The notes: generated by a model from the sequence alone, not told the origin. Positions 1-12,629 are shown, counted from the stretch's first letter. The stretch is 12,629 bases of DNA from an uncultured Deinococcales bacterium (GCA_964247135.1 CAXTTL010000141.1:1-12629); one strand, 5' to 3'. Made by a program: numbers and translations.

Positions 1-53
1 TCGGTTGTATCCTAAACTTGATAATCAATAATAATCACTGTGGTCATGCACTA
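1..53 (+). mobile_element. Right end of a probable IS630-family insertion sequence (transposase C-terminus, terminal repeat and TA target), truncated by the window edge
   Basis: Frame 2 (2..31) reads RLYPKLDNQ*, matching the C-terminal signature of many IS630 transposases (WQFTxxDARIKLxRLYP). It is followed within ~20 bp by ...GTGGTCATGCAC-TA-G, the CACTAG-type end typical of IS630 elements, which duplicate TA. Only 9 codons are visible. Confidence 0.65.
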
Positions 54-509
54 GTGCAAAAATTGGACGATACAACGTTTTACAGAAAGCATTTTCTACC
101 TATTTTGCAAGGTTTAAAAGCAGTTGACTTCCTTGCATTTGATCCTAAAAAATCAGAATTGTGGTTGATTGAGGTCAAAGACTATCGTGCTCACAGACGA
201 ACAAAAAAGATTGATTTGGTTGATGAAATTGCGCAGAAAGTATTGTCAAGTTTGTCTTGTTTAATTGCAATGAGAGCCAATGCTAACGTGCAAGAAGAAA
301 AAATCTTTGCTGAAGAAGCCATAAAAAAAGCTCGATTAAAAGTTGTGGTTCATCTCGAGCAGCCAGAAAAGCCTAGCAAATTGCGCCCAACAGTTTATGA
401 TCCGACCAATTTGCGTATCAAATTACGCGAGAAAGTCAGGTCAATTGATTCAAAAGCGGAATTCTCGAGCATCGTATTTTGCGGAAATGTGCCTTGGATA
501 GCCTCTTAA
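54..509 (+). CDS. PD-(D/E)xK nuclease-like hypothetical protein, probably 5'-truncated by the IS630 insertion (possible pseudogene)
   Basis: ORF track gives 18..509, but the TTG at 18 lies inside the putative IS. Native-looking sequence starts at about 52 (GTG at 54). Motif AVDF...LWLIEVKDY fits the D...E-x-K catalytic pattern. Visibly more AT-rich than neighbouring genes. Confidence 0.6.
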   Translation: MQKLDDTTFYRKHFLPILQGLKAVDFLAFDPKKSELWLIEVKDYRAHRRTKKIDLVDEIAQKVLSSLSCLIAMRANANVQEEKIFAEEAIKKARLKVVVHLEQPEKPSKLRPTVYDPTNLRIKLREKVRSIDSKAEFSSIVFCGNVPWIAS

Positions 510-523
510 AACTCGAGCAACAA

Positions 524-556
524 AAAACAGGAAAAGCATTTTGCTTTTCCTATTTT
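524..556. terminator. Bidirectional intrinsic terminator between convergent genes
   Basis: Stem AGGAAAAGCA (529-538) / TGCTTTTCCT (542-551), 3-nt loop, A-run on the left and T-run on the right. Confidence 0.75.
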
Positions 557-572
557 CGTTAATTGCTTTTCC

Positions 573-1427
573 TCACACGTTTTTTTCAATTGGCACACCG
601 ACAATATTGCCCCACTCCGTCCAGCTTCCGTCGTAATTGCGCACGTTCTCGTAACCAAGCAAGTATTTTAAAACAAACCAGGTGTGGCTCGAGCGTTCGG
701 CAATGCGGCAGTAGGCGATCACATCTTTGTCTGGCGTGACGTTTTTACCCTCGTACAATGCTTTGAGTTCTTCAAAGCTTTTGAACGTGCCGTCTTCGTT
801 GGCGGCTTGCGACCACGGAATGCTTTGAGCGCCTGGAATGTGTCCGCCGCGCAATGCGCCTTCCTGTGGGTAGTTGGGCATGTGGGTGACCTTGCCACTG
901 AATTCGTCGGGGCTGCGCACGTCCACCAGTGCGCCGGTGCCTCGGTTGACATCGACCAGGTGCTTTAAAACGTCCAAAGAAAATGCGCGAATGCTGGCGT
1001 CACGGTATGGCACAACGTATTTGCCTGTGGGGTGGCTCGAGACTTCGGTGGTGGTGGGTTTGCCGTCCGCGATCCATTTGGCACGTCCACCGTTCATGAC
1101 TCGGGCGTCTTTGTGACCGTTGTACTTGAAGAACCAGAAGGCGTAGCACGCCCACCAGTTGTTTTTGTCGCCGTAAAAAATCACGGTGTCGTCGTTGCTG
1201 ATCCCCAGGCTGGCGACGAGGGCGGCGAAGGCTTTCTCGTCGATGAAATCGCGGATGTCGTCGCGTTGCAGGTTGGTGTGCCAGTCCATTTTGACTGCAC
1301 CTGGAATGTGGGCTTGCTCGAACAGCAAGAAATCTTCGTTGACTTCGATCAGTTTGATGTTGGCGTCCTTGTGATGCTCGAGAACCCAATCGGTGCTGAC
1401 CAGAACTTCGGGGTGAACGTATGACAT
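573..1427 (-). CDS. Two-domain rhodanese / thiosulfate sulfurtransferase (SseA/CysA type)
   Basis: [28 protein letters not shown], active site YCRIAERS and C-terminal rhodanese signature YDGSWTEWG. Start moved from 1499 to ATG 1427 (MSYVHPEV), which has a GGAGG Shine-Dalgarno (SD) at 1434-1438. Confidence 0.95.
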
Positions 1428-1489
1428 GACTTTCCTCCGTGTGACTCGAGACTCTCGAGGTTGAGTGGTTGTTGCTCGTTTCAATCGCA

Positions 1490-1498
1490 ATGCTATCA
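1490..1498 (-). promoter_or_regulatory. Putative extended -10 promoter of the sulfurtransferase
   Basis: TGaTAGCAT (TGn-TAnnnT) about 63 bp upstream of ATG 1427. Confidence 0.45.
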
Positions 1499-1577
1499 TG
1501 CTTCTTTTGGGACGTTTTGAGCGTCGTGTAAATTACAAAACAGATCAACTACTCTAGAATTCGTTGCTCGGGTTAAG

Positions 1578-2405
1578 ATGCGTGTTGTGCGCGTCAGTGA
1601 CCGAATCGAACAAGAACTCGAAGACCATTTGGGAGCGTTAACGCGCTTGGGTGGCGGCTTTCACTCGAGGGTTTACCTTTCCGAATCCCGCGATTCGGTG
1701 GTCAAGGTCTACCGCAAAAGCACGGGAATGCACAAACTCGAGGCGGATCATATGGCGCGGGCAGGACTTGGCGCGTTTGTGCTCGGCACGTTTGAACTCG
1801 AGGGTTGGGATGTGCTGGTGATGCAACGGTTTCATGGTGCGCCCTTGACTGCCTTTGATGTTGGCGCTGCATTGCCGAACCTTGGAAAATTTTTGCGCGA
1901 ACTTCACGGGAATATTTCGGGTGACATCAATCAGGACGCCATTCGGGCACGACTCGAGCGGTTTCATGGCACGTTGGATGCCGTGCCCGAACGATCTCAA
2001 CTCGAGCCACTTTTTAAAGCCGTTCACGCGGCACTCGAGCATTCGGTTTTTGATGGTCTTGCCGGCTTATGTCACCTGGATTTGTGGCGTGCCAACGTTT
2101 TGTTCGCGTCGCCAGACAACGTTTTGATTGTGGACTGGGCAAAAAGCACTTGGGATGATCCCGCCAGGGATTACGCGTTGTTGATGACTGGAACTTTTGA
2201 CACCCTCGAGCCTGAAACTGCGGTTGGGTATGCGCTCGAACTGGCAACCGCCGAATCTGAAAGTGTCGCGGCGAGGCTGCCAATTCAGGTGGCATTAACC
2301 ACCTTGCACGATTTGCATTGGTTCCTCGAGCGCGACGAGGCTGCGTATCACAGCAATTTTGAAGAAAAGTTAAAACGGGCTTTGTTGATGCTCGAGAGGG
2401 CTTGA
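1578..2405 (+). CDS. Aminoglycoside phosphotransferase (APH)/choline kinase-like family protein, substrate unknown
   Basis: Gly-rich loop LGGGFHSRVY, VVK lysine, Brenner motif HLDLWRANVL, metal-binding IVDW, then DPARD. The start may instead be GTG 1587 (leaderless, after TAAGAT). Confidence 0.85.
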   Translation: MRVVRVSDRIEQELEDHLGALTRLGGGFHSRVYLSESRDSVVKVYRKSTGMHKLEADHMARAGLGAFVLGTFELEGWDVLVMQRFHGAPLTAFDVGAALPNLGKFLRELHGNISGDINQDAIRARLERFHGTLDAVPERSQLEPLFKAVHAALEHSVFDGLAGLCHLDLWRANVLFASPDNVLIVDWAKSTWDDPARDYALLMTGTFDTLEPETAVGYALELATAESESVAARLPIQVALTTLHDLHWFLERDEAAYHSNFEEKLKRALLMLERA

Positions 2406-2447
2406 GTTCTCAAAATCATCTTCGAGCTTTCGCGGAAAACATTGTCC

Positions 2448-2481
2448 TGTAGGGGTGAAGCTTGTGTTTACCCTTCCCACA
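2448..2481 (+). repeat. Degenerate GTAG-type REP-like hairpin
   Basis: T-GTAG-GGGTGAAGC-TTGT-GTTTACCC-TTCCCACA: a GTAG tetranucleotide directly 5' of an imperfect GC-rich stem in an intergenic region. Single copy in this window. Confidence 0.35.
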
Positions 2482-2530
2482 AAACGAAAACATTTTTAAA
2501 CCCCAGTCCTTCGTTTCGGCTCGGTTTTCG

Positions 2531-2539
2531 TGTTAGCCT
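2531..2539 (+). promoter_or_regulatory. Extended -10 element for a leaderless upp transcript
   Basis: TGtTAGCCT ends 6 nt before ATG 2546; no SD sequence. Confidence 0.6.
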
Positions 2540-2545
2540 CATGTC

Positions 2546-3172
2546 ATGAGCCTGACCGTCATCAACCATCCGCTCGTCCAACACAAACTCGCGCTGGTCC
2601 GTGACGAACGCACGGGCAGCAAAGATTTTCGTGAACTCGTAACCGAAATCACCATGCTGATGGCATTTGAAGCCATGCGCGATTTGGAACTCGAGGATGT
2701 CGAAATCACCACGCCGGTTCAGGGCGCGACGGTCAAGATGCTTTCGGGTAAAAAACTGGCTTTGGTTGGCATTTTGCGGGCTGGTTTGATCATGGTGGAC
2801 GGCATTTTAAAGCTTGTGCCCGCCGCCAAAGTTGGGCATATTGGCACGTACCGCGATCCAGTCACCAAACTTCCCGTGCGTTATTACGCCAAACTGCCCA
2901 GCGACATTTCCGAACGCCGCGTGTTTATCGTTGACCCGATGCTCGCCACGGGCGGCAGCGCGGTGGACGCGATTGCAGAACTGAAAAAAGCTGGCGCGTC
3001 AAACATCAAACTCCTCAACATCATCGCCGCGCCAGAGGGTGTGGCTCGAGTTCAGGCGGCGCATCCCGATGTCGAGATTGTGGTCGCGGCGCTCGATTCG
3101 CACCTGAACGATCACGCGTATATTGTGCCTGGGCTTGGCGATGCGGGTGATCGAATTTACGGAACCAAATAG
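2546..3172 (+). CDS. upp: Uracil phosphoribosyltransferase
   Basis: [23 protein letters not shown]-binding [11 protein letters not shown] and C-terminal [17 protein letters not shown]; 208 aa. Confidence 0.98.
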
Positions 3173-3206
3173 GTCGCACTGTGAGAATTTCCCTCATCAT
3201 CTCGAG

Positions 3207-3212
3207 TAGAAT
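3207..3212 (+). promoter_or_regulatory. -10 element for a leaderless wecA/tagO-like transcript
   Basis: TAGAAT ends 6 nt before GTG 3219; no SD; immediately preceded by CTCGAG. Confidence 0.6.
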
Positions 3213-3218
3213 TCAATC

Positions 3219-4319
3219 GTGACGGAGTTCTTAAAAATGCTTGGCGTTTCTGGTTCGCTCGAGGCTGGGCTGTTTCCAGTGATCGCCATTTTTATCACCG
3301 CCATTTTGGTGACCTGGTTTTTTGTGCCCAGGGTGCGCGGTTTTGCGGTTGAAAAGGGTTTGGGTGACAAGCCCAACGAACGGCGTTTGAACAAAGAAAT
3401 CTTGCCAAACTTGGGTGGTTTGACGGTCTTTGCGGGCGTGATCGCGGCGCTGATCGTGGCAACGGCGCTCAAGTCACAAATTTTGGCAACCGTCAATGTC
3501 CAAGTGCTGGCGATCATTCTGGGCGGTGCAATTTTGGTCTTGATCGGTTTTATCGACGATCAATTCGAGTTGCCCAGCATGTTTAGACTTGGTGTTCAAT
3601 TTTTGTGTGCGGGTTTGCTGGTCGTGAACGGCATTCGCATTGACATCACGTTTTTGCCAACTTGGGCGGACACCGCGCTGACCTTATTCTGGATTGTCGG
3701 CATCACCAACGCCGTCAATCTTCTGGATGGCATCGACGGCAACGTTGGCGGTTTGGGCTTTATCAGTTCCATCTGCCTGCTCGCCCTCAGCGCTCAATTC
3801 TCAACTCGAGCTGCCGCCACCTTGATTCTGGCGGCGTTGGCTGGGGCTTGCCTCGGGTTTTTGCGGCACAATTTTAATCCCTCGAGAATCATTCTCGGTG
3901 ACGCGGGCGCGACTTTTATCGGGTACACGCTGGCTGCCGTGTCTGTCTTGGGTACGGTGAAGATTGCGGCGTTCGCCAGCTTGCTCGCGCCCGTGGTGAT
4001 TTTGCTGGTGCCGATCATCGACACCACCCAAGTCGTGGTGAAACGCATCATGCGCGGGGTGCGCCCCGACACCCCAGGCAAAGACCATTTGCATCATTTG
4101 CTGTTAAAACGCGGTTTTGACCAGCGCCGCAGCGTGCTGATTTTGTGGGGCGCAACCTTATTCCTAAACGTGGTCGGCATGGTCTTGCAACATGCCAGAC
4201 CCATTGTCATTATTGTGACCGTGTTTGGTGTGGTCGTGATGCTGGCATTTGTCGCGCAGGTGCGACTTCGAGAGGTCAAACTCGAGGCTCAAAAAGCGCT
4301 CGCCAATTCAAATTCTTAA
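3219..4319 (+). CDS. wecA: Undecaprenyl-phosphate GlcNAc-1-phosphate transferase (WecA/TagO type, MraY superfamily)
   Basis: Multi-pass membrane protein with PNLGG, IGFIDD, GITNAVNLLDGIDG, NFNPSRIILGDAGA and the HLHH motif typical of WecA/TagO; adjacent to wecB. Confidence 0.9.
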   Translation: MTEFLKMLGVSGSLEAGLFPVIAIFITAILVTWFFVPRVRGFAVEKGLGDKPNERRLNKEILPNLGGLTVFAGVIAALIVATALKSQILATVNVQVLAIILGGAILVLIGFIDDQFELPSMFRLGVQFLCAGLLVVNGIRIDITFLPTWADTALTLFWIVGITNAVNLLDGIDGNVGGLGFISSICLLALSAQFSTRAAATLILAALAGACLGFLRHNFNPSRIILGDAGATFIGYTLAAVSVLGTVKIAAFASLLAPVVILLVPIIDTTQVVVKRIMRGVRPDTPGKDHLHHLLLKRGFDQRRSVLILWGATLFLNVVGMVLQHARPIVIIVTVFGVVVMLAFVAQVRLREVKLEAQKALANSNS

Positions 4320-4346
4320 ACTCGAGTTTTCAAGGAGTGTGAAGGT

Positions 4347-5471
4347 ATTAGCCAGTTAAAACGTGTGGTGGTGGCGTTTGGAACGCGTCCAGAGGCGATC
4401 AAGATGGCTCCGGTGATTTTGGCGCTGCGCCAAAATCCGATGCTCGAGGTGAAGGTCTTAAGCACGGGTCAGCAGCGTCAACAGGTCGAGGATGGCTTGA
4501 AGATTTTTAGCATTGTGCCAGATAACGATTTGCAGGTCATGACCGAGCGTCAAACCCTGCCAGGTTTGATGGGCAAAATCGTGCCTGCCGCCGCCGATAA
4601 ACTCCGCGAACTGAACGCCGATTATGTTTTGGTTCACGGCGATACCCTGACCTCGTTTGCGGTGGCGCTGGCGGCTTTTTTCGAGCAAATCCCTGTCGCC
4701 CACGTCGAGGCTGGGCTGCGTTCGGGCAGTCTGCGCGAACCCTTCCCAGAGGAAGCCAACCGCAAACTGACCAGCGTCATTACCGATCTGGACTTACCGC
4801 CAACCAGGGGTTCAGCCGAAAACCTGTACAAAGAGGGCAAGGGCAGCTCGAGTGTGGTGGTGACAGGTCAAACCGAGGTCGATGCGGTCTTGTTCGCCAG
4901 CACCAGGGGGGTAGCGCCCGAACTTCCAGCAGGCAAGCGAATTGTGACCGTGACCATGCACCGCCGCGAGAACCTGCCCGTGATGCGCGAACTCGCCGCC
5001 GCTTTGGGCAAGGTTGCCAGTGCGCACCCCGACACGCATTTTGTGATTCCAGTCCATTTAAATCCAGCCGTGCGCGAAGCCATTTACCCAGAACTCGAGC
5101 ACATTGGGAATTTCAGTTTGCTCGAGCCGCTCGAGTTTGGCGCGATGGCGGCACTGATGGCACGCTCGAGTTTGCTGGTCACCGATTCTGGCGGGGTGCA
5201 AGAGAGCGGCGCGACTTTGGGTGTGCCTGTGGTGGTGCTTCGCAACGTCACCGAACGTCCAGAGGGTTTGGTGGCGGGCGTCCTGAAACTGGCTGGAACG
5301 ACGGGCGATGGCGTATTCAAGACCGTCAATCAATTGCTCTCGAGCGAGGAGGCTTTGAACGCCATGCGCGGCAAACCAAACCCTTACGGCGATGGTCATG
5401 CCTCGAGCCGCGTGGCGCAGGCGGTGGCGTGGAAGTTGGGGCTTGGGGAGCGTCCGAGCGATTGGCAGTAA
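4347..5471 (+). CDS. wecB: UDP-N-acetylglucosamine 2-epimerase (non-hydrolysing)
   Basis: [60 protein letters not shown]. First canonical start is GTG 4365, but the SD AAGGAG (4332-4337) points to ATT at 4347. Confidence 0.95.
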
Positions 5472-5507
5472 AATTTGAGCTTTAAATTCTGAATCGTATG
5501 ACCAAAT

Positions 5508-5544
5508 AAAAAACCTCGAGAGACATTTGATCGTCTCTCGGGTT
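5508..5544 (-). terminator. Intrinsic terminator of the peptide-lipoprotein operon (possibly also used by wecB)
   Basis: AACC(T)CGAGAGAC (5512-5524) / GTCTCTCGGGTT (5533-5544), 8-nt loop; the A-run at 5508-5513 gives a U-tail on the minus strand. Confidence 0.75.
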
Positions 5545-5568
5545 GGTGGTCAGTTGAAATGGAAGTGA

Positions 5569-6777
5569 TTATGGAAGTACGTCAACATCCAAAGTGGTTG
5601 AAGTGGTCGTGGTTGAGTCGGTTAAATCCACGCTGATCGTGTGCGGACTTCCGACAGGGGTGGCAGCAAGGTAAGTGTGGCTGGCAGCGATAGGAGTTGC
5701 TGTCAATGTGACGCCAGTAAACGAATCTGCGGCAGTTGCATCGTCCCAGTCAACCGTAATGTCTGTGACAGATGTACCGGCGGCTGCCCTGTAGGTGATG
5801 TTCAGCGGGTAATTCACATTGGCGTTGGCAGTTGTGCTGTTGGCACTGATGTCCACAAAAGGGCTGACATCGCACGAAATGCTGAGCAAACAAACTGGGC
5901 TTGTGCTGGTCAACACGTTCCAAACTCGAGTTGTTGTAAACGCCACATTGGCAACGTCTGAGTCATTTCCAGCCAAATAAACGTCGTCTGCGGTGACGGC
6001 AGCGGCTCGAGTATTGGCGTCGGCAGTCGTATCACCAAGTCCACGGCTGACTCGGGTGTTGGTGTCGTCTGCGATCACAAAGTCTGCTTTGAATTTGTAG
6101 GCGGAGTTGACGTTTGCATTTGGCAGTTTGTAGGCAATGGTGATGGTGCCCGTACCGCCTGCCACGAAGACCCGACCGCCAGTGCTGTTGCGGGCAACAA
6201 AGCCGTATTGCAAGATGGTGTCGCCTGCGGCGATGGTGCTGGGAATCAGGGCAGTTGCTTCGGTGGTGACTTGAGCTATTTCATCCAGTGTAAAACCTTG
6301 AAAATCGGCGTTGGAATTGTCAATGGTGTAACCAAAAATCGGAAAGCCAGTATAGATGGTTTTATGGATGGGCAGCAGGCTTTGGGCGTTGCTGCCGCTT
6401 GCGCCACCATTAAAATTGATCATGCTTTCGATGGCTGTTCCACCAATGCCAGTGCCAAGTTTGTTGTAGGCGTGTAAGGTTAAATTGCTGAAAGGGATAT
6501 TGGCGGTCACTGGAAAGGTCGCGCTGAGGAAGCGGTTGCCGCTGCCAGCGTCAACATAATCCACAAAAGTTGGTGTGCCAAACGTCACAGCAGTGTCTGC
6601 CACGGCAGCACGGGGTGAAAAGTGGGTGCTCGAGCTTCCAGCATCCGCGCCAATGCCCAGTGATACCGTGCCAATAACCTTGCTCGAGGGGGCTGGGTTG
6701 GTGTTCAGGCTTGGGTTTTGAGAGCACGAGACAGCCAGAAAAAGTGGAAGAATCCAAGCAACGTTTTTGAAATTCAT
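5569..6777 (-). CDS. Putative surface lipoprotein, Thr/Ala/Gly-rich and predicted beta-rich, with a C-terminal PKD/Ig-like domain
   Basis: Signal peptide MNFKNVAWILPLFLAVS-C with a lipobox-like Cys18, then a Pro/Ser/Asn tether. C-terminal VDWDD...ASHTY...G.HTISVDLTD resembles PKD (WDFGDG...HTY...GxYxVxLTV). SD AAAGGAG at 6786-6792; ATGA overlap with the upstream peptide gene. Confidence 0.8.
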   Translation of the reverse strand: MNFKNVAWILPLFLAVSCSQNPSLNTNPAPSSKVIGTVSLGIGADAGSSSTHFSPRAAVADTAVTFGTPTFVDYVDAGSGNRFLSATFPVTANIPFSNLTLHAYNKLGTGIGGTAIESMINFNGGASGSNAQSLLPIHKTIYTGFPIFGYTIDNSNADFQGFTLDEIAQVTTEATALIPSTIAAGDTILQYGFVARNSTGGRVFVAGGTGTITIAYKLPNANVNSAYKFKADFVIADDTNTRVSRGLGDTTADANTRAAAVTADDVYLAGNDSDVANVAFTTTRVWNVLTSTSPVCLLSISCDVSPFVDISANSTTANANVNYPLNITYRAAAGTSVTDITVDWDDATAADSFTGVTLTATPIAASHTYLAATPVGSPHTISVDLTDSTTTTSTTLDVDVLP

Positions 6778-6971
6778 ATTCCAAGCTCCTTTGGATCGAG
6801 ACTGACCGAATCGTCCAAAATGGAAGGGAACGGTTGGACCATGCCGATTGAAAGCCCAATGCCGGCGGTCAGAGAGCTGTAGTCCCCGTGGACCTCGAGT
6901 TTGGGGGTTTGATACGGTTTTTGTTCGAGGAGCGCGGTTGAATTGAGTACATCAGATGTTTTGCTTTTCAT
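6774..6971 (-). CDS. 65-aa peptide with a lasso-type RiPP leader motif (orphan precursor-like)
   Basis: Strong SD AAAGGAG (6977-6983) 5 nt before ATG; stop overlaps the next start (ATGA). Contains YQTPKLEVHGDYSSLTA|G = YxxPxLxxxGxxxxxTx|G. Confidence 0.8.
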   Translation of the reverse strand: MKSKTSDVLNSTALLEQKPYQTPKLEVHGDYSSLTAGIGLSIGMVQPFPSILDDSVSLDPKELGI

Positions 6972-7069
6972 GGTAACTCCTTTACAAAAAATTTGAATTG
7001 TGATGATGTTATACGTTTTGACGCTTTTGTTTTTAAGTCTTCCCTAACCAAATTGCTCACACAGTTCTA

Positions 7070-7109
7070 ATTATAACGTGAAGAATTGAAAATAAGCTGA
7101 ATTTTCAGC
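7070..7109 (-). promoter_or_regulatory. Putative promoter of the peptide-lipoprotein operon with an upstream palindromic binding site
   Basis: Consensus TATAAT at 7075-7070, no good -35, and palindrome GCTGAA-N2-TTCAGC at 7096-7109. Confidence 0.5.
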
Positions 7110-7287
7110 CACTTTATCTTTTGTAAGCGACATCGTTCAGAACGCTTGAACTCGGTATAAAAAATAACAATGCACAGCGCTTTCAAAAGGATATTTTGCT
7201 ATTATTTATGCTCGAGTCAAAATAGAACGTGTGGGCAATTTTCGTGTCGTTTTGATTTTGCAGGCGGTGGCGAAGATTAACAAAAAC

Positions 7288-9087
7288 TCAAATGATAGCC
7301 TCGAGTTCATTCACCATGTTTTTTAAAACTTCAAAACCGCGCTGCACGGGTTCTGGGCTGTTCATGTCAATGCCAGCCAATTTCAGGGCATCAATCGGAT
7401 ACCTCGAGCTGCCGGTTTTCAAAAAATCGATATAGCGTTTGGCGGCGGGTTCACCCTCGGTCAACACATCTGTTGCCAGCGCATTGGCGGCGGCAATTCC
7501 CGTGGCATATTGATACACGTAAAATGGCGAATACAAATGCCCAAAGTTCATCCAACACGAACCCAGACGGGTTGCATCAATGTTTACCGAACCGCCGTAA
7601 CCTTCACCAAACAATTCGACCAAACGTTCGCTCAAAAACGGGGCATTGATCGAACCGCCGCGCTCGACTCGCTCGTACATTTCACGCTCGAGCTTTGCAA
7701 GGGTCGGCATGACAAACAAATAGCGGTGAAAATTCGAGAATGCCTCCTCGAGCAGCGCCAGTTTCGCGGTTTTGTCGGTTGCCGATTTTAACAGGTCACT
7801 GCGCACCATCGCCTGATTGAAATTGCTGGCGACCTCGGCAACGAACATGCTGTAATCGGTGTAAATGGCGGGTTGGGTGGTGTTGCTAAAGTACGAGTGC
7901 ATCGAATGCCCCAACTCGTGCGCCAAGGTTGAAAGCGAGTAGAGGTCGTCCGTCCAGCTCATAAAAATAAACGGATGCGTCCCCTGAGCGCCACTCGAGT
8001 ACGCGCCCGCGCCCTTGCCCTGATTCGGACCCCAATCGACCCAGCGTTGCTCGAGCAAACCTTTGCGCATGGGGTCGATGTACTCCGCGCCGAGCGGTTC
8101 CATGCCCTTCAGGATCAAATGCGAAGCCTCGAGAAACGTAACTTTGGTGCTTGGCACGAGCGGCGCTGGAGATTCGTAAATCGGTGCGTCGCTGGTGTGC
8201 AAAGCCCCGTTCATGGCTTGCTTGCGAAGCCGCCAATACTTGTGCCAGAGGGGCTGATACTCTTTGAACGTCTCGAGCAGATTTTCATAGACCCGCAGCG
8301 GTATGTGGTTTCGCGCCAAACTCATTTCCAAACTCGAGCCGTAATTTCTGGCTCGCGCCTTAAACACATAAGCCTTCACGCTGGCTTGCAAGGTTGCCGC
8401 CAGCGTATTTTGAAACGCCAAATGACCGTCGGCGTAAGCTTCAAAAGCCGCTCGACGCACGTCGGCGTTGGTGTCTGAAAGATACTCCCCGACGCTCGAG
8501 TGTGAAACTTCGACCTCAACGCCGTCGCGCAAAATCGGCTCAAATTTCATGTCGGCATCGTTCACCGCGCTCGAGATGCTGTACGCAGCCCCGAGCGGAT
8601 CGCTGGCTTGCGCCAAGAGCATCTCGACCTCAAAGCTGCGCACATGATCGCGCTCGGAGCGCAACTCTTCAAAATAATGACGGTACATTTCAAGCTTGGG
8701 TTCGTCACGCACAAATTGCTCGAGTTTTGCGTCTTCAAAAGCCAGCAACTCTGGACCAAAAAATGCCGCCGCGCCAGACAATTGTGCCCCAGCCGAGGCA
8801 ATCTCGGCATTCATGCTCGAGTAGGTCGTGTTCGTGCCCTCGATTGACGCCAGCAAACTGGCGTACATGCTGATCTTGTAAGCCTCCATGAAAATGCGGT
8901 CACGAAGCGCCAAAGCCTCAAACAAAACCGTACCAGATTCGCCCAGGCGTCCAGCGTACTTGGAAATTTCGCTTGCAGAGGCTGGAAGTGTCTCGAGGGC
9001 TTGGCGCCACTCGGTTTCGTTCGCAAAGACGGTTTCGACACTCCAGGTTTTGGCTTTTTCGACTTCACTGCGTTTGGGTAAGCTCAT
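7288..9087 (-). CDS. pepF: Oligoendopeptidase F (M3B zinc metallopeptidase)
   Basis: 599 aa; GKGAGAYS, TLAHELGHSMH (HEXXH), FVAEVAS, H..FYVYQYATG, GSSRYPIDALKLAGIDM. Confidence 0.95.
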   Translation of the reverse strand: MSLPKRSEVEKAKTWSVETVFANETEWRQALETLPASASEISKYAGRLGESGTVLFEALALRDRIFMEAYKISMYASLLASIEGTNTTYSSMNAEIASAGAQLSGAAAFFGPELLAFEDAKLEQFVRDEPKLEMYRHYFEELRSERDHVRSFEVEMLLAQASDPLGAAYSISSAVNDADMKFEPILRDGVEVEVSHSSVGEYLSDTNADVRRAAFEAYADGHLAFQNTLAATLQASVKAYVFKARARNYGSSLEMSLARNHIPLRVYENLLETFKEYQPLWHKYWRLRKQAMNGALHTSDAPIYESPAPLVPSTKVTFLEASHLILKGMEPLGAEYIDPMRKGLLEQRWVDWGPNQGKGAGAYSSGAQGTHPFIFMSWTDDLYSLSTLAHELGHSMHSYFSNTTQPAIYTDYSMFVAEVASNFNQAMVRSDLLKSATDKTAKLALLEEAFSNFHRYLFVMPTLAKLEREMYERVERGGSINAPFLSERLVELFGEGYGGSVNIDATRLGSCWMNFGHLYSPFYVYQYATGIAAANALATDVLTEGEPAAKRYIDFLKTGSSRYPIDALKLAGIDMNSPEPVQRGFEVLKNMVNELEAII

Positions 9088-9093
9088 AGGCTC

Positions 9094-9099
9094 AGTTTA
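9094..9099 (-). promoter_or_regulatory. -10 element for a leaderless pepF transcript
   Basis: TAAACT ends 6 nt before ATG 9087; no SD. Confidence 0.6.
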
Positions 9100-9162
9100 C
9101 AAAATTTAAGTTTTACAAGTTGTCGCAGAATTGCAACGCTGGCTCGAGGTCTAAATTTTGGT

Positions 9163-9999
9163 TTACTTCAAAGCACCGAGCGTCAAGCCTTCGCGCCAGT
9201 AACGTTGCAGCAAAACAAACACGATTAAAAGCGGCACAAACGAAATAAATGTTGCGGTGATAATCGTGGTGTAACTGAATTTCTCGCCCAGTGCGGCGGT
9301 CGAATTCCAAACTTCCAAACCCACAGTCGTTGGGAACAATTCGGTTTTTGAGAGCACCACCAGCGGTAAGAAAAAATTATTCCAGGTTTCGACAAAAGCA
9401 AACAAACCGACGGTGACAAGTCCGTTTCGCACGAGTGGCAAACCGATTCTCGAGAAGACCTGCCATTCGTTCGCGCCGTCCAAGTACGCGGCATCCATCA
9501 GTTCGTTCGGGAAACCTTGCGTCCAGAAGATGGTCATGAGGTACACGCCAAACGGGTTGACCAGTGCGGGCAGGATAAAACCAAGCTGCGTGTCGTTCAG
9601 TCCAAAACGGTTGACGAGCAAAAAAATCGGCAGCACCAACGCCGAGAAGGGCATCAGAACACCGCCCAGAATTGCCAGGTACAAAAAGCGTTTGAAAGGG
9701 AATTCGTGCTTGGCAAACGCGTAACCGCCCATCGCGCAGAGCAGCGTCGAACCCAGCGCGACGACGCTCGAGTACAGCACGGAATTCCAAAGCCAGGTGG
9801 ACACGATGCCGTTTTGGTAGGCGAAAGCCGCGCGAAGATTCTCGAAAAAATGTACTGGAAAAGACGGCAGCAAACCGAACGAGTCAAACAGTTGCCCGTT
9901 GTCTTTGGTCATCGAAACGACCAGCCAGTACAAGGGCAGCATAAAGTACGCCAAGCACAACAAAATCAGCAGGCTCGAGATTTCAATTTTGGGTTTCAT
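9163..9999 (-). CDS. Carbohydrate ABC transporter permease (MalG-like, CUT1)
   Basis: Hydrophobic helices; EAA loop ELMDAAYLDGANEWQVFSRIGLP; WNNFFLPL; ATGA overlap with the upstream permease. Confidence 0.93.
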   Translation of the reverse strand: MKPKIEISSLLILLCLAYFMLPLYWLVVSMTKDNGQLFDSFGLLPSFPVHFFENLRAAFAYQNGIVSTWLWNSVLYSSVVALGSTLLCAMGGYAFAKHEFPFKRFLYLAILGGVLMPFSALVLPIFLLVNRFGLNDTQLGFILPALVNPFGVYLMTIFWTQGFPNELMDAAYLDGANEWQVFSRIGLPLVRNGLVTVGLFAFVETWNNFFLPLVVLSKTELFPTTVGLEVWNSTAALGEKFSYTTIITATFISFVPLLIVFVLLQRYWREGLTLGALK

Positions 10000-10856
10000 G
10001 CGCGTCCCCGTTGATGGTTAATGATGGTTAAGAACACGCTCGAGAGTCCAAAGGTCAGGATGGCGACGATCACGGACAGCGCGGCGGCGTAATTGAAATT
10101 GCCGTAACCAAACGCGTTCGAGTAAATGTAAAGGTTCGGCGAAAGGTTGGTGGGGATGAACGACAAGGATTTTAAAACGAATGGTTCGCTAAAGATTTGC
10201 AGCACACCAATCACGGCAAACATCAGGGTCAGCGACAGGGTTGGCATCAAAAGCGGTAATTTTAAGAACCTTACGACCTGCACCGCGTTCGCGCCGTCCA
10301 CAGTCGCGGCTTCGTACAATTCGGGCGGAATGGATTTTAAACTCGAGGCGAGAATGATCGTGTTGTACCCCGTCCACGTCCAGGTAAAAATGTTACCGAT
10401 GGCAAACAGCAAGTGGTCAGCGCTGAGAAACTCGAAGTTCAGTCCAAACCAAGCCAGGATGTCGTTGAATGGACTGAGGCTTTTGGAGTACAAATACCCC
10501 CACATCAAACCGCTGACCACGCCAGGCAGCGCATAAGGCAAGAACACACTCGCGGTAAAAACCTTCGCCAGCCGCGATTCTCGAGCATCCAAGTACAACG
10601 CGAACGAGAGCGCCAACAGCAGCATGATCGGGATTTGCAAGGCACCAAAACGGGCGATGGTCTCAAGAGACTCAATAAATTGCGCGTCGCTGAGTGCCCG
10701 CACAAAGTTTTGCAAGCCAACAAAAACGGCTGGGTTTAAACCGCGTTGCACAAAAAAACTGAGGTACACGGCGTACAAGGTGGACACGAAGTAAAACAGT
10801 AGGTACAAGACCAAGAATGGCAGTAAAAACGCGAGTCCAACAAAACGTTTGGGCAT
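9996..10856 (-). CDS. Carbohydrate ABC transporter permease (MalF-like, CUT1)
   Basis: FVGLQNF, FLPYALP, EAA loop ELYEAATVDGA, GNFNYAAALS. Start moved from 10922 to ATG 10856 (AAGGA 8 nt upstream; removes the overlap with the binding-protein gene). ATG 10865 is an alternative. Confidence 0.93.
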   Translation of the reverse strand: MPKRFVGLAFLLPFLVLYLLFYFVSTLYAVYLSFFVQRGLNPAVFVGLQNFVRALSDAQFIESLETIARFGALQIPIMLLLALSFALYLDARESRLAKVFTASVFLPYALPGVVSGLMWGYLYSKSLSPFNDILAWFGLNFEFLSADHLLFAIGNIFTWTWTGYNTIILASSLKSIPPELYEAATVDGANAVQVVRFLKLPLLMPTLSLTLMFAVIGVLQIFSEPFVLKSLSFIPTNLSPNLYIYSNAFGYGNFNYAAALSVIVAILTFGLSSVFLTIINHQRGRA

Positions 10857-10884
10857 CAGTGACATCCTTGGCGCGGCTCGAGTC

Positions 10885-12216
10885 TTATTTTTCGGTGACG
10901 GTAAAACCTTGCGCCTGGGCATAGGTCAGCACCTCGGATTGCCAATGCTCGAGCGCCTGATCCCAGGTGATTTTCTTGGCAATGGCATCGGCGAGGTGCT
11001 TGTTGAAATTGTCATTGGCAAACAAAAACCACGGCGACCAGATAAAATTCGTGTCCACGTGTCGGCTCGCCTCGAGGTACGCCCCCGCGACGTTCATGCC
11101 AAAGAATTTGTTCGGGTCAAGCTTCGGGTCTTGCAACTCGGGCAGCGTTAAACCGGCTTTGGCGGCAGGAAACACGCCTTGTTTCACCCAGTTGATTTTG
11201 ATGGCATTCGGATGCGTCATCATCCAGGCGGCGAAGATCGTGGCGGCTTGCGGCTCTTTGGATTGTGTGGTCACCGCGTAAGCCGTTCCGCCCCAGTTGC
11301 CGGTGGTAAATTTGCCCATGCCCGCCCATTGTGGTATCGGTGCGACCCGCCATTTGCCAGCCGTTTTTTTGGACAACGAACTGGCGATTGACCCTGGTCC
11401 CCAAGCCGCTTCGATGCTCGAGATGATGCTGTCATTGCCGAGGGCTTTGTAAAAGTCGAGGGTGAAATCTTGGAAGCTTGAAACATAACCTTTTTCAATC
11501 ATCTTGCCCCAGTAATTCAGCACGGTTTTGGCTTTGGGATTGTTTAAATTTTGTGTCCAAGCCTCGCCGTTTTTGCTCCAGAAATGTCCACCGTATGCCC
11601 AGACCAAACCCATGTACCACGGCGCATAGGTCGAGAAGAAATTGGCAATCTTGACTTTGTTGTTCGTGGCTTTGGAAAGCTTAACGGCATTGGCTTCAAA
11701 TTCTGACCAGGTTTTGGGCACTTTCAGACCGTATTTTTTGTACAGGTCGGCGCGGTACACGAGTGCCAGCGGTCCTTGATCGCCAGGAATTCCCCAAACA
11801 CTTTTTCCGTCCGGCGAAACTTGGCGCCAAGCCCATTCTGGGTAGAGACTTTTGAAATCATTCGCGCCGTACTGAGCCAGGTCTGTAAGACCGCCGAACG
11901 CGATAAAACTGGGCAGGAAGCCGTATTCGATGGCTGCCACGTCGGGCGCCCCAGTGCCGGCTTTTAAGGCGGTCAGCAGCTTGTTGTACTCGTCAGGACC
12001 CGCGCCGACGTTTGACAATTGAACCTTGATGTTTGGGAAATCTTTGTTGAACGCCGCAATCACCGCGCCGCTCGAGCCGCCCCAATCCCAAAGTTTTAAG
12101 GTCACGTTTTTGCTGAAACTCGGGTATTTTGGCGCGTTCGCCGCTTTTTGACCAAACGCAAGCAAAGACCCTGTGACCGCCGCAATCAAACTTATAAGCA
12201 ACAAAGTTTTTCTCAT
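10885..12216 (-). CDS. Sugar ABC transporter substrate-binding protein (family 1)
   Basis: Signal peptide without a lipobox Cys; TLKLWDW, GAPDV, YRADL..KYGL.VPKTWSEF, GKWRVAPIPQW, GNWGG. SD AAGGAG at 12224-12229. Confidence 0.93.
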   Translation of the reverse strand: MRKTLLLISLIAAVTGSLLAFGQKAANAPKYPSFSKNVTLKLWDWGGSSGAVIAAFNKDFPNIKVQLSNVGAGPDEYNKLLTALKAGTGAPDVAAIEYGFLPSFIAFGGLTDLAQYGANDFKSLYPEWAWRQVSPDGKSVWGIPGDQGPLALVYRADLYKKYGLKVPKTWSEFEANAVKLSKATNNKVKIANFFSTYAPWYMGLVWAYGGHFWSKNGEAWTQNLNNPKAKTVLNYWGKMIEKGYVSSFQDFTLDFYKALGNDSIISSIEAAWGPGSIASSLSKKTAGKWRVAPIPQWAGMGKFTTGNWGGTAYAVTTQSKEPQAATIFAAWMMTHPNAIKINWVKQGVFPAAKAGLTLPELQDPKLDPNKFFGMNVAGAYLEASRHVDTNFIWSPWFLFANDNFNKHLADAIAKKITWDQALEHWQSEVLTYAQAQGFTVTEK

Positions 12217-12629
12217 GTCACTGCTCCTTTTTTTGCCCGAGAACCCTGCACTCGAGCTTGCCGTGAAAGGGGTTTGGAAAAGGCGGCGCCCGTGGATTCG
12301 CGGATGATGATTTCCAGTGTTTGCGGTTTGGTCTGAACGCTTTGTGGCAAACCTTCAAGCCGTTCGAGCAGCAATTTTGTGGCTCGAGCGCCCTGCCCCT
12401 CGAGGTCTTGAAAAACGGTGGTCAGTGAAGGCGTTAAATACCGCGCAATCGGTTCGTCGTCAAAACCGGTCACGGATACATCGTGCGGAACTTTAAAACC
12501 TTGTTCGCCAAGCGCACGAATGACCCCAACCGCCACAAAATCGTTGGCGGCAATCACGGCGCTGACCCCTTCTGGAAGTCCTGGCTCGAGCAACCTGTAG
12601 CCGCACTCAATCGTCCAATCGCCCGCCCG
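12213..12629 (-). CDS. LacI/GalR-family transcriptional regulator, C-terminal part (5' end outside the window)
   Basis: The frame is open to the window edge (RAGDWTIECGY...). Motifs AVIAANDFVAVG, VPHDVSVTGFDD, PSLTTV, IIRESTG. ATGA overlap with the binding-protein gene. Confidence 0.93.
   Translation of the reverse strand, partial: RAGDWTIECGYRLLEPGLPEGVSAVIAANDFVAVGVIRALGEQGFKVPHDVSVTGFDDEPIARYLTPSLTTVFQDLEGQGARATKLLLERLEGLPQSVQTKPQTLEIIIRESTGAAFSKPLSRQARVQGSRAKKGAVT

Follow-up and report, generated by a model that had tools for sequence, protein, structure and literature searches.

For three decades, to our knowledge, cyanobacteria have been the only known source of highly iterated palindromes (HIPs), and the function of these words is debated, with a repair by-product, nucleoid structure, and an uptake signal all under consideration. 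A HIP is a short palindrome over-represented 15- to 300-fold (PMC5861425), and both HIP1 (GCGATCGC) and the alternate HIPs are GC-rich words with tens-fold over-representation (Elhai 2015, PMC4390886; Xu, Lawrence and Durand 2018, PMC5861425). The density quoted for HIPs is about 1 per kb, and a methyltransferase specific for such a word, or for its core, accompanies it in every genome rich in it (PMC4390886); the positional conservation of HIP1 was taken as evidence for selection over neutral replenishment (PMC5861425). HIP1 also sits in a clustered regularly interspaced short palindromic repeats (CRISPR) repeat of Synechocystis (PMC6604393), and it has been hypothesized to be an uptake recognition sequence (PMC13756078) and to be subject to a drive tied to the exchange or recombination of DNA (PMC13756078; 10.1101/2024.09.10.611283). 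Here, we analyzed a stretch of 12,629 nt from an uncultured Deinococcales bacterium (GCA_964247135.1 CAXTTL010000141.1:1-12629), referred to at its full length as “the window,” in which an initial annotation had remarked on the hexamer CTCGAG. With CTCGAG, a second phylum has a genuine HIP-like word: a force that acts on the whole word at the level of DNA creates and holds it in every kind of DNA resident in one bacterial family, altering proteins in the process.

The DNA uptake sequences (DUS) of Neisseriaceae and the uptake signal sequences (USS) of Pasteurellaceae are non-palindromic, 9 to 12 bases long, and present at about one per kb. In Escherichia coli, Dcm/Vsr very-short-patch repair raises CCWGG, a modification enzyme and a site-specific mismatch nuclease together biasing the genome to a palindrome; the effect requires Vsr and a cognate C5-methyltransferase, depletes the T-containing neighbors of the word, and would protect cytosines only. 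CTCGAG itself is the target of XhoI/PaeR7I-type systems, one of which is present in a sister-family genome, and targets of restriction are normally avoided.

CTCGAG lies within the HIP range of abundance, with an observed/expected ratio (O/E) of 24.8 in the genome and 70 copies against 2.0 expected in the window. It is distributed throughout the genome, within open reading frames (ORFs) in all frames and between them, it is found across its lineage, its sites are conserved beyond background (79.3% versus 46.9% overall and 75.3% versus 45.9% in intergenic DNA), and it sits in the CRISPR repeat of its family; the likeness to HIP1 proposed in the initial annotation is therefore borne out. Unlike HIP1, the word occurs in Deinococcota and not in cyanobacteria, is a different and shorter sequence (a strict 6-mer without a longer core), shows no short-range periodicity, and has a clear effect on proteins (Leu-Glu O/E of 2.4). 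It is also roughly six-fold denser than the HIPs (∼6.7 per kb), and no family-wide cognate methyltransferase was found for it among 11 methyltransferase genes.

Like DUS and USS, CTCGAG is family specific, evenly spread over genes and spacers, enriched just past stop codons, and tolerated in coding DNA by peptide adjustment; it could arise by molecular drive without benefit to the cell, and the competence channel gene ComEC is present, though in sister families too. It differs from them as a palindromic hexamer at 6.66 per kb with weakly biased, non-complementary flanks, and we know of no uptake receptor or uptake bias in Deinococcales. The 25-fold effect sets it apart from Dcm/Vsr, whose effect is far smaller, as do the finding of Vsr in 0 of 19 family genomes, T-containing neighbors that are not depleted, and A/T positions that are protected too. 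In contrast to restriction targets, which are avoided (as is this hexamer in one sister family, at O/E 0.03), CTCGAG is maximally enriched, and none of 19 family genomes yielded a member of the XhoI family. In the literature, supplements aside, we found no description of CTCGAG over-representation; papers that bring up iterated palindromes together with Deinococcales are, by their titles and abstracts, on cyanobacteria, and passages of two papers mention the hexamer as a methylation motif only (10.64898/2026.06.24.734251; PMC8112702). The presence of CTCGAG at host density in 90 CRISPR spacers (7.0 per kb) is new here.

A family-wide iterated palindrome

We are nearly certain, for the descriptive part of this report as a whole, that the 70 sites of the window represent a highly iterated palindrome that extends over the whole genome and over an entire uncultured family of Deinococcales. 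The assembly (5.09 Mb in 386 contigs, 52.65% G+C, 84% complete) contains 33,925 CTCGAG, against 1,370 expected from base composition, a density of 6.66 per kb or about one per 150 bases. CTCGAG ranks first among all hexamers in the genome, the next ranks being held by its own overlapping neighbors, and 62% of all TCGA tetramers fall within it. The word is present on every one of the 356 contigs that reach 3 kb, at 2.56 to 11.3 per kb (median, 6.79), and the 18 other family genomes, from five genera, carry it without exception at about 4.3 to 6.8 per kb, compared with 0.03 to 2.9 per kb in 12 genomes of four sister families (densities computed from rounded genome sizes). The excess is thus not confined to the window, and the enrichment of 19 genomes, with sites at orthologous positions and the nearest records coming from differently named assemblies, rules out a library or assembly artefact.

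By title, the nearest records are “MAG: Deinococcales bacterium” (92 to 94% protein identity), and Meiothermus comes next (73 to 75%). Loci of 3 kb around the epimerase gene in Meiothermus (L240 to L251) hold 4 to 11 CTCGAG against ∼1 expected, or 1.3 to 3.5 per kb, and do not avoid GGCC; judged from these loci, a weaker enrichment may be older than the family. One sister family (G020, G024, and G028) is nearly without the word, with 128 to 457 copies in 4.2 to 4.8 Mb and an O/E of 0.03 in a 100-kb sample, which places sister families of one order at opposite extremes.

The reverse word GAGCTC, of equal composition, has 0 copies in the 5.09 Mb and 0 in the window. It is present in at most 25 copies in 15 of the 18 other family genomes and in 114 to 568 copies in the other three, which are still rich in CTCGAG, so that avoidance of the one word and abundance of the other are separable. 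Palindrome avoidance in the genome extends to GGCC (380 copies; O/E 0.016) and CTAG (O/E 0.07), and 17 of the 64 palindromic hexamers are at an O/E of 0.04 or less; this extreme avoidance stands beside at least 11 methyltransferase genes.

A force on the whole word

The word is strictly six bases long, and its flanks are biased only weakly (toward A at −3 and −2 and G at −1, and away from T at −4). Because the bias is alike in intergenic half-sites (n = 9,338) and in coding ones (n = 56,574), it belongs to the DNA and not to codons. The two flanks of one site are complementary at 0.21 to 0.30, which is about chance and rules out a longer palindrome or hairpin centered on the sites. Spacing is near random (variance/mean of 1.12 over 4,900 1-kb windows), although pairs less than 30 bases apart are depleted, and a search for periodicity up to 3 kb found none except the 3-base codon period. 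HIP1 is reported to be periodic, with periods of 10 to 90 kb (PMC5861425); the largest contig here is 115.6 kb. Genome-wide, density peaks just past stop codons, at 16.4 per kb in the first 10 bases. Eleven site-poor islands, 34.5 kb in total, include low-GC DNA with STAND/AAA NTPase genes, a TraG P-loop gene, and transporter and glycosidase genes, a mixture in which some genes are mobile or defense-like; ribosomal RNA was discarded as an account of these islands, none of the 11 having an Rfam match. What is retained is the double-stranded DNA word itself.

For codon controls, genes were called crudely, as the 4,514 longest non-overlapping ORFs of at least 100 amino acids (aa). CTC and GAG are frequent codons in GC-rich relatives, and codon use alone yields a 2.8- to 5.4-fold zero-order excess of the word in sister-family genomes, which would favor an origin in codon usage. 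Yet CTCGAG is no less dense in non-coding DNA (7.50 per kb, with 5,418 copies against 162 expected, a 33-fold excess) than in coding DNA (6.52 per kb), and the 28,532 coding copies compare with 3,994 ± 62 after synonymous shuffling, a 7.1-fold excess that persists although the word itself inflates the codon table, and with 1,672 after codon-order shuffling. All three frames exceed the synonymous shuffles, by 5.7- to 13.5-fold: 17,385 against 3,074 for CTC-GAG, 4,543 against 336 for xCT-CGA-Gxx, and 6,604 against 584 for xxC-TCG-AGx.

Conditioning on the dipeptide gives the same picture. CTC-GAG writes 17,385 of the 22,634 Leu-Glu pairs (76.8%), compared with 4.9% expected context-free from the share of CTC among Leu codons (15%) and of GAG among Glu codons (33%) when the two stand apart from each other; this is a 15.6-fold excess, and the corresponding ratio in 100-kb samples of four sister-family genomes is 0.08 to 2.3. 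TCG makes up 88% of Ser codons where the context permits CTCGAG and 15 to 23% elsewhere, and CGA makes up 83% of Arg codons where the context permits it and 11 to 30% elsewhere. The statement of the initial annotation that codon bias alone falls short is accordingly supported by the synonymous, codon-order, and dipeptide-conditioned controls and by non-coding DNA alike.

The word also reaches into protein sequence. No dipeptide is more over-represented than Leu-Glu (O/E 2.40; Glu-Leu, 1.02; Ser-Ser, 1.63), whose O/E is 1.00 to 1.38 in the 100-kb samples of four sister-family genomes. CTCGAG thus overrides synonymous codon choice in three frames and raises Leu-Glu 2.4-fold. For Leu-Glu pairs that the window writes as CTCGAG, outgroup orthologues have the identical pair in 4 of 22 aligned cases (18%; control dipeptides, 38%), orthologues from other genera of the family in 42 of 64 (65.6%; controls, 52.8%), and those of the same genus in 107 of 117 (91.5%; controls, 76.9%), figures that come from non-independent rows and, for the outgroup, a small sample. 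The direction of these data suggests that the pairs were derived within the family and afterwards retained.

Sites are held in place. Across the regions orthologous to the window in five same-genus genomes (82 to 86% identity), 76 to 85% of CTCGAG are intact, compared with 33 to 41% of other hexamers; in a five-way alignment of 6 kb with 47 site positions, 21 are common to all, 9 are missing in one, and 6 occur in one only. On a larger scale, gain and loss were followed in 400 kb of a same-genus genome, with an alignable part of 288 kb at 85.9% identity. In this alignment, 1,635 sites are shared, 426 are found only here, and 248 only in the relative, so that CTCGAG is conserved at 79.3% versus 46.9% for control hexamers; in alignable intergenic DNA, the figure is 162 of 215 (75.3%) versus 45.9%.

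The cleanest of the controls is codon-matched and compares, over the 288 kb, the same codon inside and outside CTCGAG with the amino acid unchanged. CTC is identical in 1,015 of 1,107 cases inside the word (91.7%) versus 749 of 1,280 outside (58.5%), GAG in 1,023 of 1,084 (94.4%) versus 795 of 1,132 (70.2%), TCG in 373 of 405 (92.1%) versus 557 of 783 (71.1%), and CGA in 204 of 251 (81.3%) versus 268 of 439 (61.0%). All six positions, C/G and A/T, are therefore protected, A/T somewhat less. Sites that are not shared differ at 3 to 4 positions in 21.8% of cases versus 10.4% of controls; we did not use such clustered multi-base change as a sign of patch-wise gain, because relaxed decay after loss explains it equally.

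The word in DNA sampled by CRISPR

The genome has one CRISPR array (contig C221, 7026 to 8137, and contig C9, 61 to 168) with a 37-base repeat that contains CTCGAG, and repeats within three mismatches of it are present in 7 of the 19 family genomes, in four genera. Five family genomes yielded 90 distinct spacers (3,127 bp), with a duplicated spacer counted once and two single-repeat contig ends giving none. These spacers hold 22 CTCGAG (7.0 per kb), against 0.72 expected from composition (Poisson P of ∼3.5e-25), and 20 of the 90 carry the word, compared with 19.3% of random host 35-mers. They also avoid the same words as the host, with 3 GGCC against 14.0 expected, 3 CTAG against 11.0, and 4 CCGG against 14.0. 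This host-like composition implies that the DNA that enters the cells and is sampled by CRISPR adaptation bears the signature of the family.

One of the 14 distinct spacers of the genome (C221, 7702 to 7738) matches, at 35 of 37 bases, the genome's own peroxiredoxin-like gene, which lies on another contig of the assembly among housekeeping genes (C25, 927 to 961). It is likely, on this match, to be a self-targeting or kin-derived spacer, and the match implies that some spacers come from chromosomal DNA of kin or from elements that carry such DNA.

In search of phages of the family, viral contigs were scanned for three CTCGAG within ∼80 bases, and among the matches listed, 127 loci, none had the signature of the family, a G+C content of ∼52% combined with a lack of GAGCTC and GGCC. 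Among the matches listed, viral loci L085/L086, L074, L113, and L127 (64 to 71% GC) carry 7 to 9.6 CTCGAG per kb and avoid neither GAGCTC nor GGCC; these contigs may come from another GC-rich host lineage with raised CTCGAG.

The sites of the window

Counted exactly, the window has 70 CTCGAG, beginning with the one at 354 and ending with the one at 12585 to 12590, as the initial annotation had estimated (about 70). Its further estimate of a ∼20-fold excess over ∼3 expected was right as to a strong excess and too low in size: 200 dinucleotide-preserving shuffles give 2.0 (standard deviation, 1.39; maximum, 7), an excess of ∼35-fold. On the ORF map, 63 of the sites at 354 to 12590 are in ORFs and 7 are intergenic. 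By phase, and in agreement with the codon contexts first described, the 63 comprise 29 CTC-GAG (Leu-Glu), 24 xxC-TCG-AGx (Ser followed by Ser or Arg), and 10 xCT-CGA-Gxx (Arg in the middle). Within-gene synonymous codon shuffles (n = 500) of the 12 ORFs leave 6.4 ± 2.3 copies (maximum, 13) in place of 63.

The gene content is ordinary housekeeping: a rhodanese protein, a kinase-like protein, Upp, a WecA-like glycosyltransferase, UDP-GlcNAc 2-epimerase, oligopeptidase F, a sugar ABC transporter, and a LacI-type regulator. The oligopeptidase F gene (pepF; 7288 to 9087, minus strand) exemplifies a housekeeping gene saturated with the word, with 14 copies, 8 of them as Leu-Glu.

Nine positions had been called intergenic at first, and six of these are: 512 to 517, between the convergent ORFs 3 to 509 (plus strand) and 573 to 1499 (minus strand); 3201 to 3206, between upp (2546 to 3172) and a glycosyltransferase-4 gene (3219 to 4319); 4321 to 4326, two bases past the stop codon of the latter; 5515 to 5520, between convergent genes at 4365 to 5471 (plus strand) and 5569 to 6777 (minus strand); 7211 to 7216, in the spacer 6777 to 7288; and 9143 to 9148, between pepF and an ABC permease gene (9163 to 9999). 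The spacer 6777 to 7288 holds a further site, at 6894 to 6899, that the initial annotation had missed. The other three positions, 1445, 1454, and 10877, fall within ORFs only near the 5′ ends of the longest possible calls, and the genes may in truth start downstream of them. Sites 1445 and 1454, which are 9 bases apart (1445 to 1459) in the 5′ end of the rhodanese ORF, probably precede the start of the rhodanese gene, because DNA similarity to other family genomes ends at ∼1444.

Two ORFs have no Pfam match, at 5569 to 6777 (minus strand, 402 aa) and at 3 to 509 (plus strand, 168 aa, open at the window edge); the former is conserved only inside the genus, at 53 to 81% identity. Between the kinase-like gene and upp lies a repeat of ∼50 to 75 bases (2436 to 2511) that contains GTAG followed by a run of G, with further copies at 78 to 95% identity on many contigs of the same and related genomes. 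Window bases 1 to 54 recur at other contig ends, at 100% on contig C3. Both repeats look like REP/RAYT-type repeats; the element at 2436 to 2511 folds no better than its shuffles (z = 1.24).

Candidate mechanisms

The explanation that we favor, at a rough probability of 40%, is a drive linked to exchange or recombination of DNA among kin, as has been hypothesized for HIP1. A dimeric protein would read the entire hexamer, as Type IIP restriction-modification enzymes do, and would favor word-bearing DNA whenever DNA is exchanged, recombined, or repaired among kin; the resulting molecular drive, of the uptake- or recombination-signal kind, would spread CTCGAG through DNA that stays in the family and would then hold it there. 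We favor such a drive because protection covers every position of the word, the search for a component of methylation or repair found none, the incoming DNA is kin-like, and restriction-modification genes are 80 to 93% identical across genera and missing from closer kin. Reading of the whole word is supported by the flanks, which are the same in intergenic and coding half-sites, and by the lack of a longer palindrome around the sites; exchange among kin is supported by the host-like spacers, the match of one spacer to the peroxiredoxin-like gene, the presence of ComEC, and the TraG P-loop gene, the STAND/AAA NTPase genes, and the low-GC DNA of the site-poor islands. Signals for DNA uptake and for chromosome organization, both raised in the initial annotation, are still plausible readings.

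Several points weigh against a drive by kin exchange. The reader protein is hypothetical, and the uptake and recombination steps are conjectural. Known uptake sequences are ∼9 to 12 bases long and present at about one per kb, and CTCGAG is shorter and about seven times denser. Cultured Thermus and Deinococcus are not known to take up DNA in a sequence-specific way. ComEC is found in 18 of the 19 family genomes and in 12 of 12 sister-family genomes, and its equal presence without hyper-abundance in the latter means that it does not discriminate. The host-like spacers could stem from kin chromosomes, long-resident mobile elements, or adapted phages, of which only the first fits uptake in particular. 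Finally, positional conservation and the protection of six positions would be expected just as much if plain selection kept the word for a role in the chromosome.

A bolder form of the kin-exchange drive, toward which we are tentative and somewhat doubtful, would have a system shared by the whole family recognize CTCGAG as the mark of DNA of the cell's own kind, with a hexamer reader favoring word-rich DNA in uptake, recombination, or survival in the cell. The chromosome and the mobile elements of the family would both be driven to about one copy per 150 bases, and altered proteins would be the cost.

Methylation-linked biased repair, the model of Elhai for HIP1, fares best among the alternatives, though we consider it unlikely. 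An orphan methyltransferase would mark CTCGAG or TCGA, and mark-dependent mismatch repair would convert near-cognate sequences to CTCGAG and protect existing copies. An uninterrupted 6-bp palindrome is a typical target of Type II modification, and the near-total avoidance of CTCGAG in one sister family (128 to 457 copies; O/E 0.03) would fit enzymes directed at it. Such enzymes exist in the order: sister-family genome G021 (locus L045) has a XhoI-family endonuclease gene convergent with a PF01555 methyltransferase gene. CTCGAG is reported to be methylated in other microbes (10.64898/2026.06.24.734251; PMC8112702), and the cyanobacterial alternate HIPs accompany a cognate methyltransferase (PMC4390886). 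The genome, for its part, has at least 11 DNA methyltransferase genes, found by an inventory with PF07669, PF01555, PF00145, PF02384, and PF02086. The classes named are two C5, five N4/N6 (one of them partial and one without CTCGAG), one D12-class, one type I HsdM, two MmeI-like, and one Eco57I-like of 1,502 aa.

The distribution of these genes counts against methylation-linked repair. Four of them, searched in all 18 other family genomes, have orthologues of at least 50% identity in only 2 to 4, and four others have orthologues in 0 to 2 of 5 genus representatives; the two MmeI-like genes and the type I HsdM gene were set aside as cognate enzymes by domain content, being of classes that do not read such a site. 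None of the 11 is family-wide, in an assembly that is 84% complete, with specificity not readable from sequence and other methyltransferase and nuclease folds not searched. Two family genomes (91% and 82% complete) have no match to either C5-methyltransferase protein (E ≤ 1e-10), and several of the methyltransferase genes are 80 to 93% identical across genera yet missing from closer kin. A ∼500-aa PF07669 match that recurs in most genomes was rejected as a single orthologue, since ten copies are mutually 23 to 46% identical (except for one same-genus pair at 91% and one sister-family pair at 63%); nine of the ten resemble the type I HsdM of the genome, and one gave no match.

Repair and restriction enzymes give no better lead. 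Vsr (PF03852) and the XhoI endonuclease family (PF04555) were each found in 0 of 19 family genomes, and the TaqI family (PF09573) in 0 of 5; the BsoBI family (PF09194) was also found in 0 of 5, a weak blank, as the model matched no control genome either. Both genes of the convergent pair in G021 are free of CTCGAG, and that genome has 3,937 copies of the word and writes Leu-Glu as CTC-GAG 2.3 times above expectation. The methyltransferase of the pair was dropped as a pointer, its best match here being at 26% identity to a CTCGAG-free gene without family orthologues. The one-base neighbors of CTCGAG are at roughly normal frequency, and those that deamination would produce are not depleted (CTTGAG/CTCAAG, O/E 1.16; TTCGAG/CTCGAA, O/E 1.73). 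Protection extends to A/T positions as well (CGA, 81.3% versus 61.0%), which repair of deamination would not achieve. These results count against a Dcm/Vsr-like drive, and they leave the link to an orphan methyltransferase or a Vsr-like nuclease, suggested at first, without its key component; an enzyme may yet have gone undetected, because the assemblies are incomplete and sequence does not predict specificity.

Still less probable, in our judgment, is that CTCGAG binds a nucleoid-associated or chromosome-organizing protein and is kept by ordinary selection on chromosome structure, the view that Xu, Lawrence and Durand take of HIP1. The positional conservation of sites in genes and spacers, the even coverage of the whole assembly, and weak symmetric flank preferences that would fit a protein footprint of ∼12 bp all agree with it. 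Against it stand the near-random spacing, with no period up to 3 kb other than that of codons, the host-like density in CRISPR-sampled DNA, which it does not obviously explain, and the very abundant protein that ∼34,000 sites would demand, none having been identified. The last alternative, that the excess merely follows from codon usage, from the amino acids encoded, or from the way the genome avoids many other palindromes, or else is an assembly or library artefact, has a negligible chance, codon bias and artefact being excluded by the 7.1-, 15.6-, and 33-fold excesses given above, by the 0 copies of the same-composition GAGCTC, and by the 19 enriched genomes.

Significance

A second, independent case of a HIP-like word permits a comparative test of each HIP hypothesis, as it is denser, belongs to another phylum, uses another word, and has, on present evidence, no conserved cognate methyltransferase. 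In practical terms, XhoI would cut DNA of this family to fragments of ∼150 bp, k-mer binning and host prediction would be dominated by CTCGAG, and codon-usage models would be context-dependent. If CTCGAG does mark own-kind DNA, it would be the densest genomic signature word known and an independent second instance, outside cyanobacteria, of the role of HIP1, and the reader could be found by comparing two unrelated systems. For the family itself, with 77% of its Leu-Glu pairs written in one way, the word shows the reach of a DNA-level force over both codon choice and amino-acid sequence.

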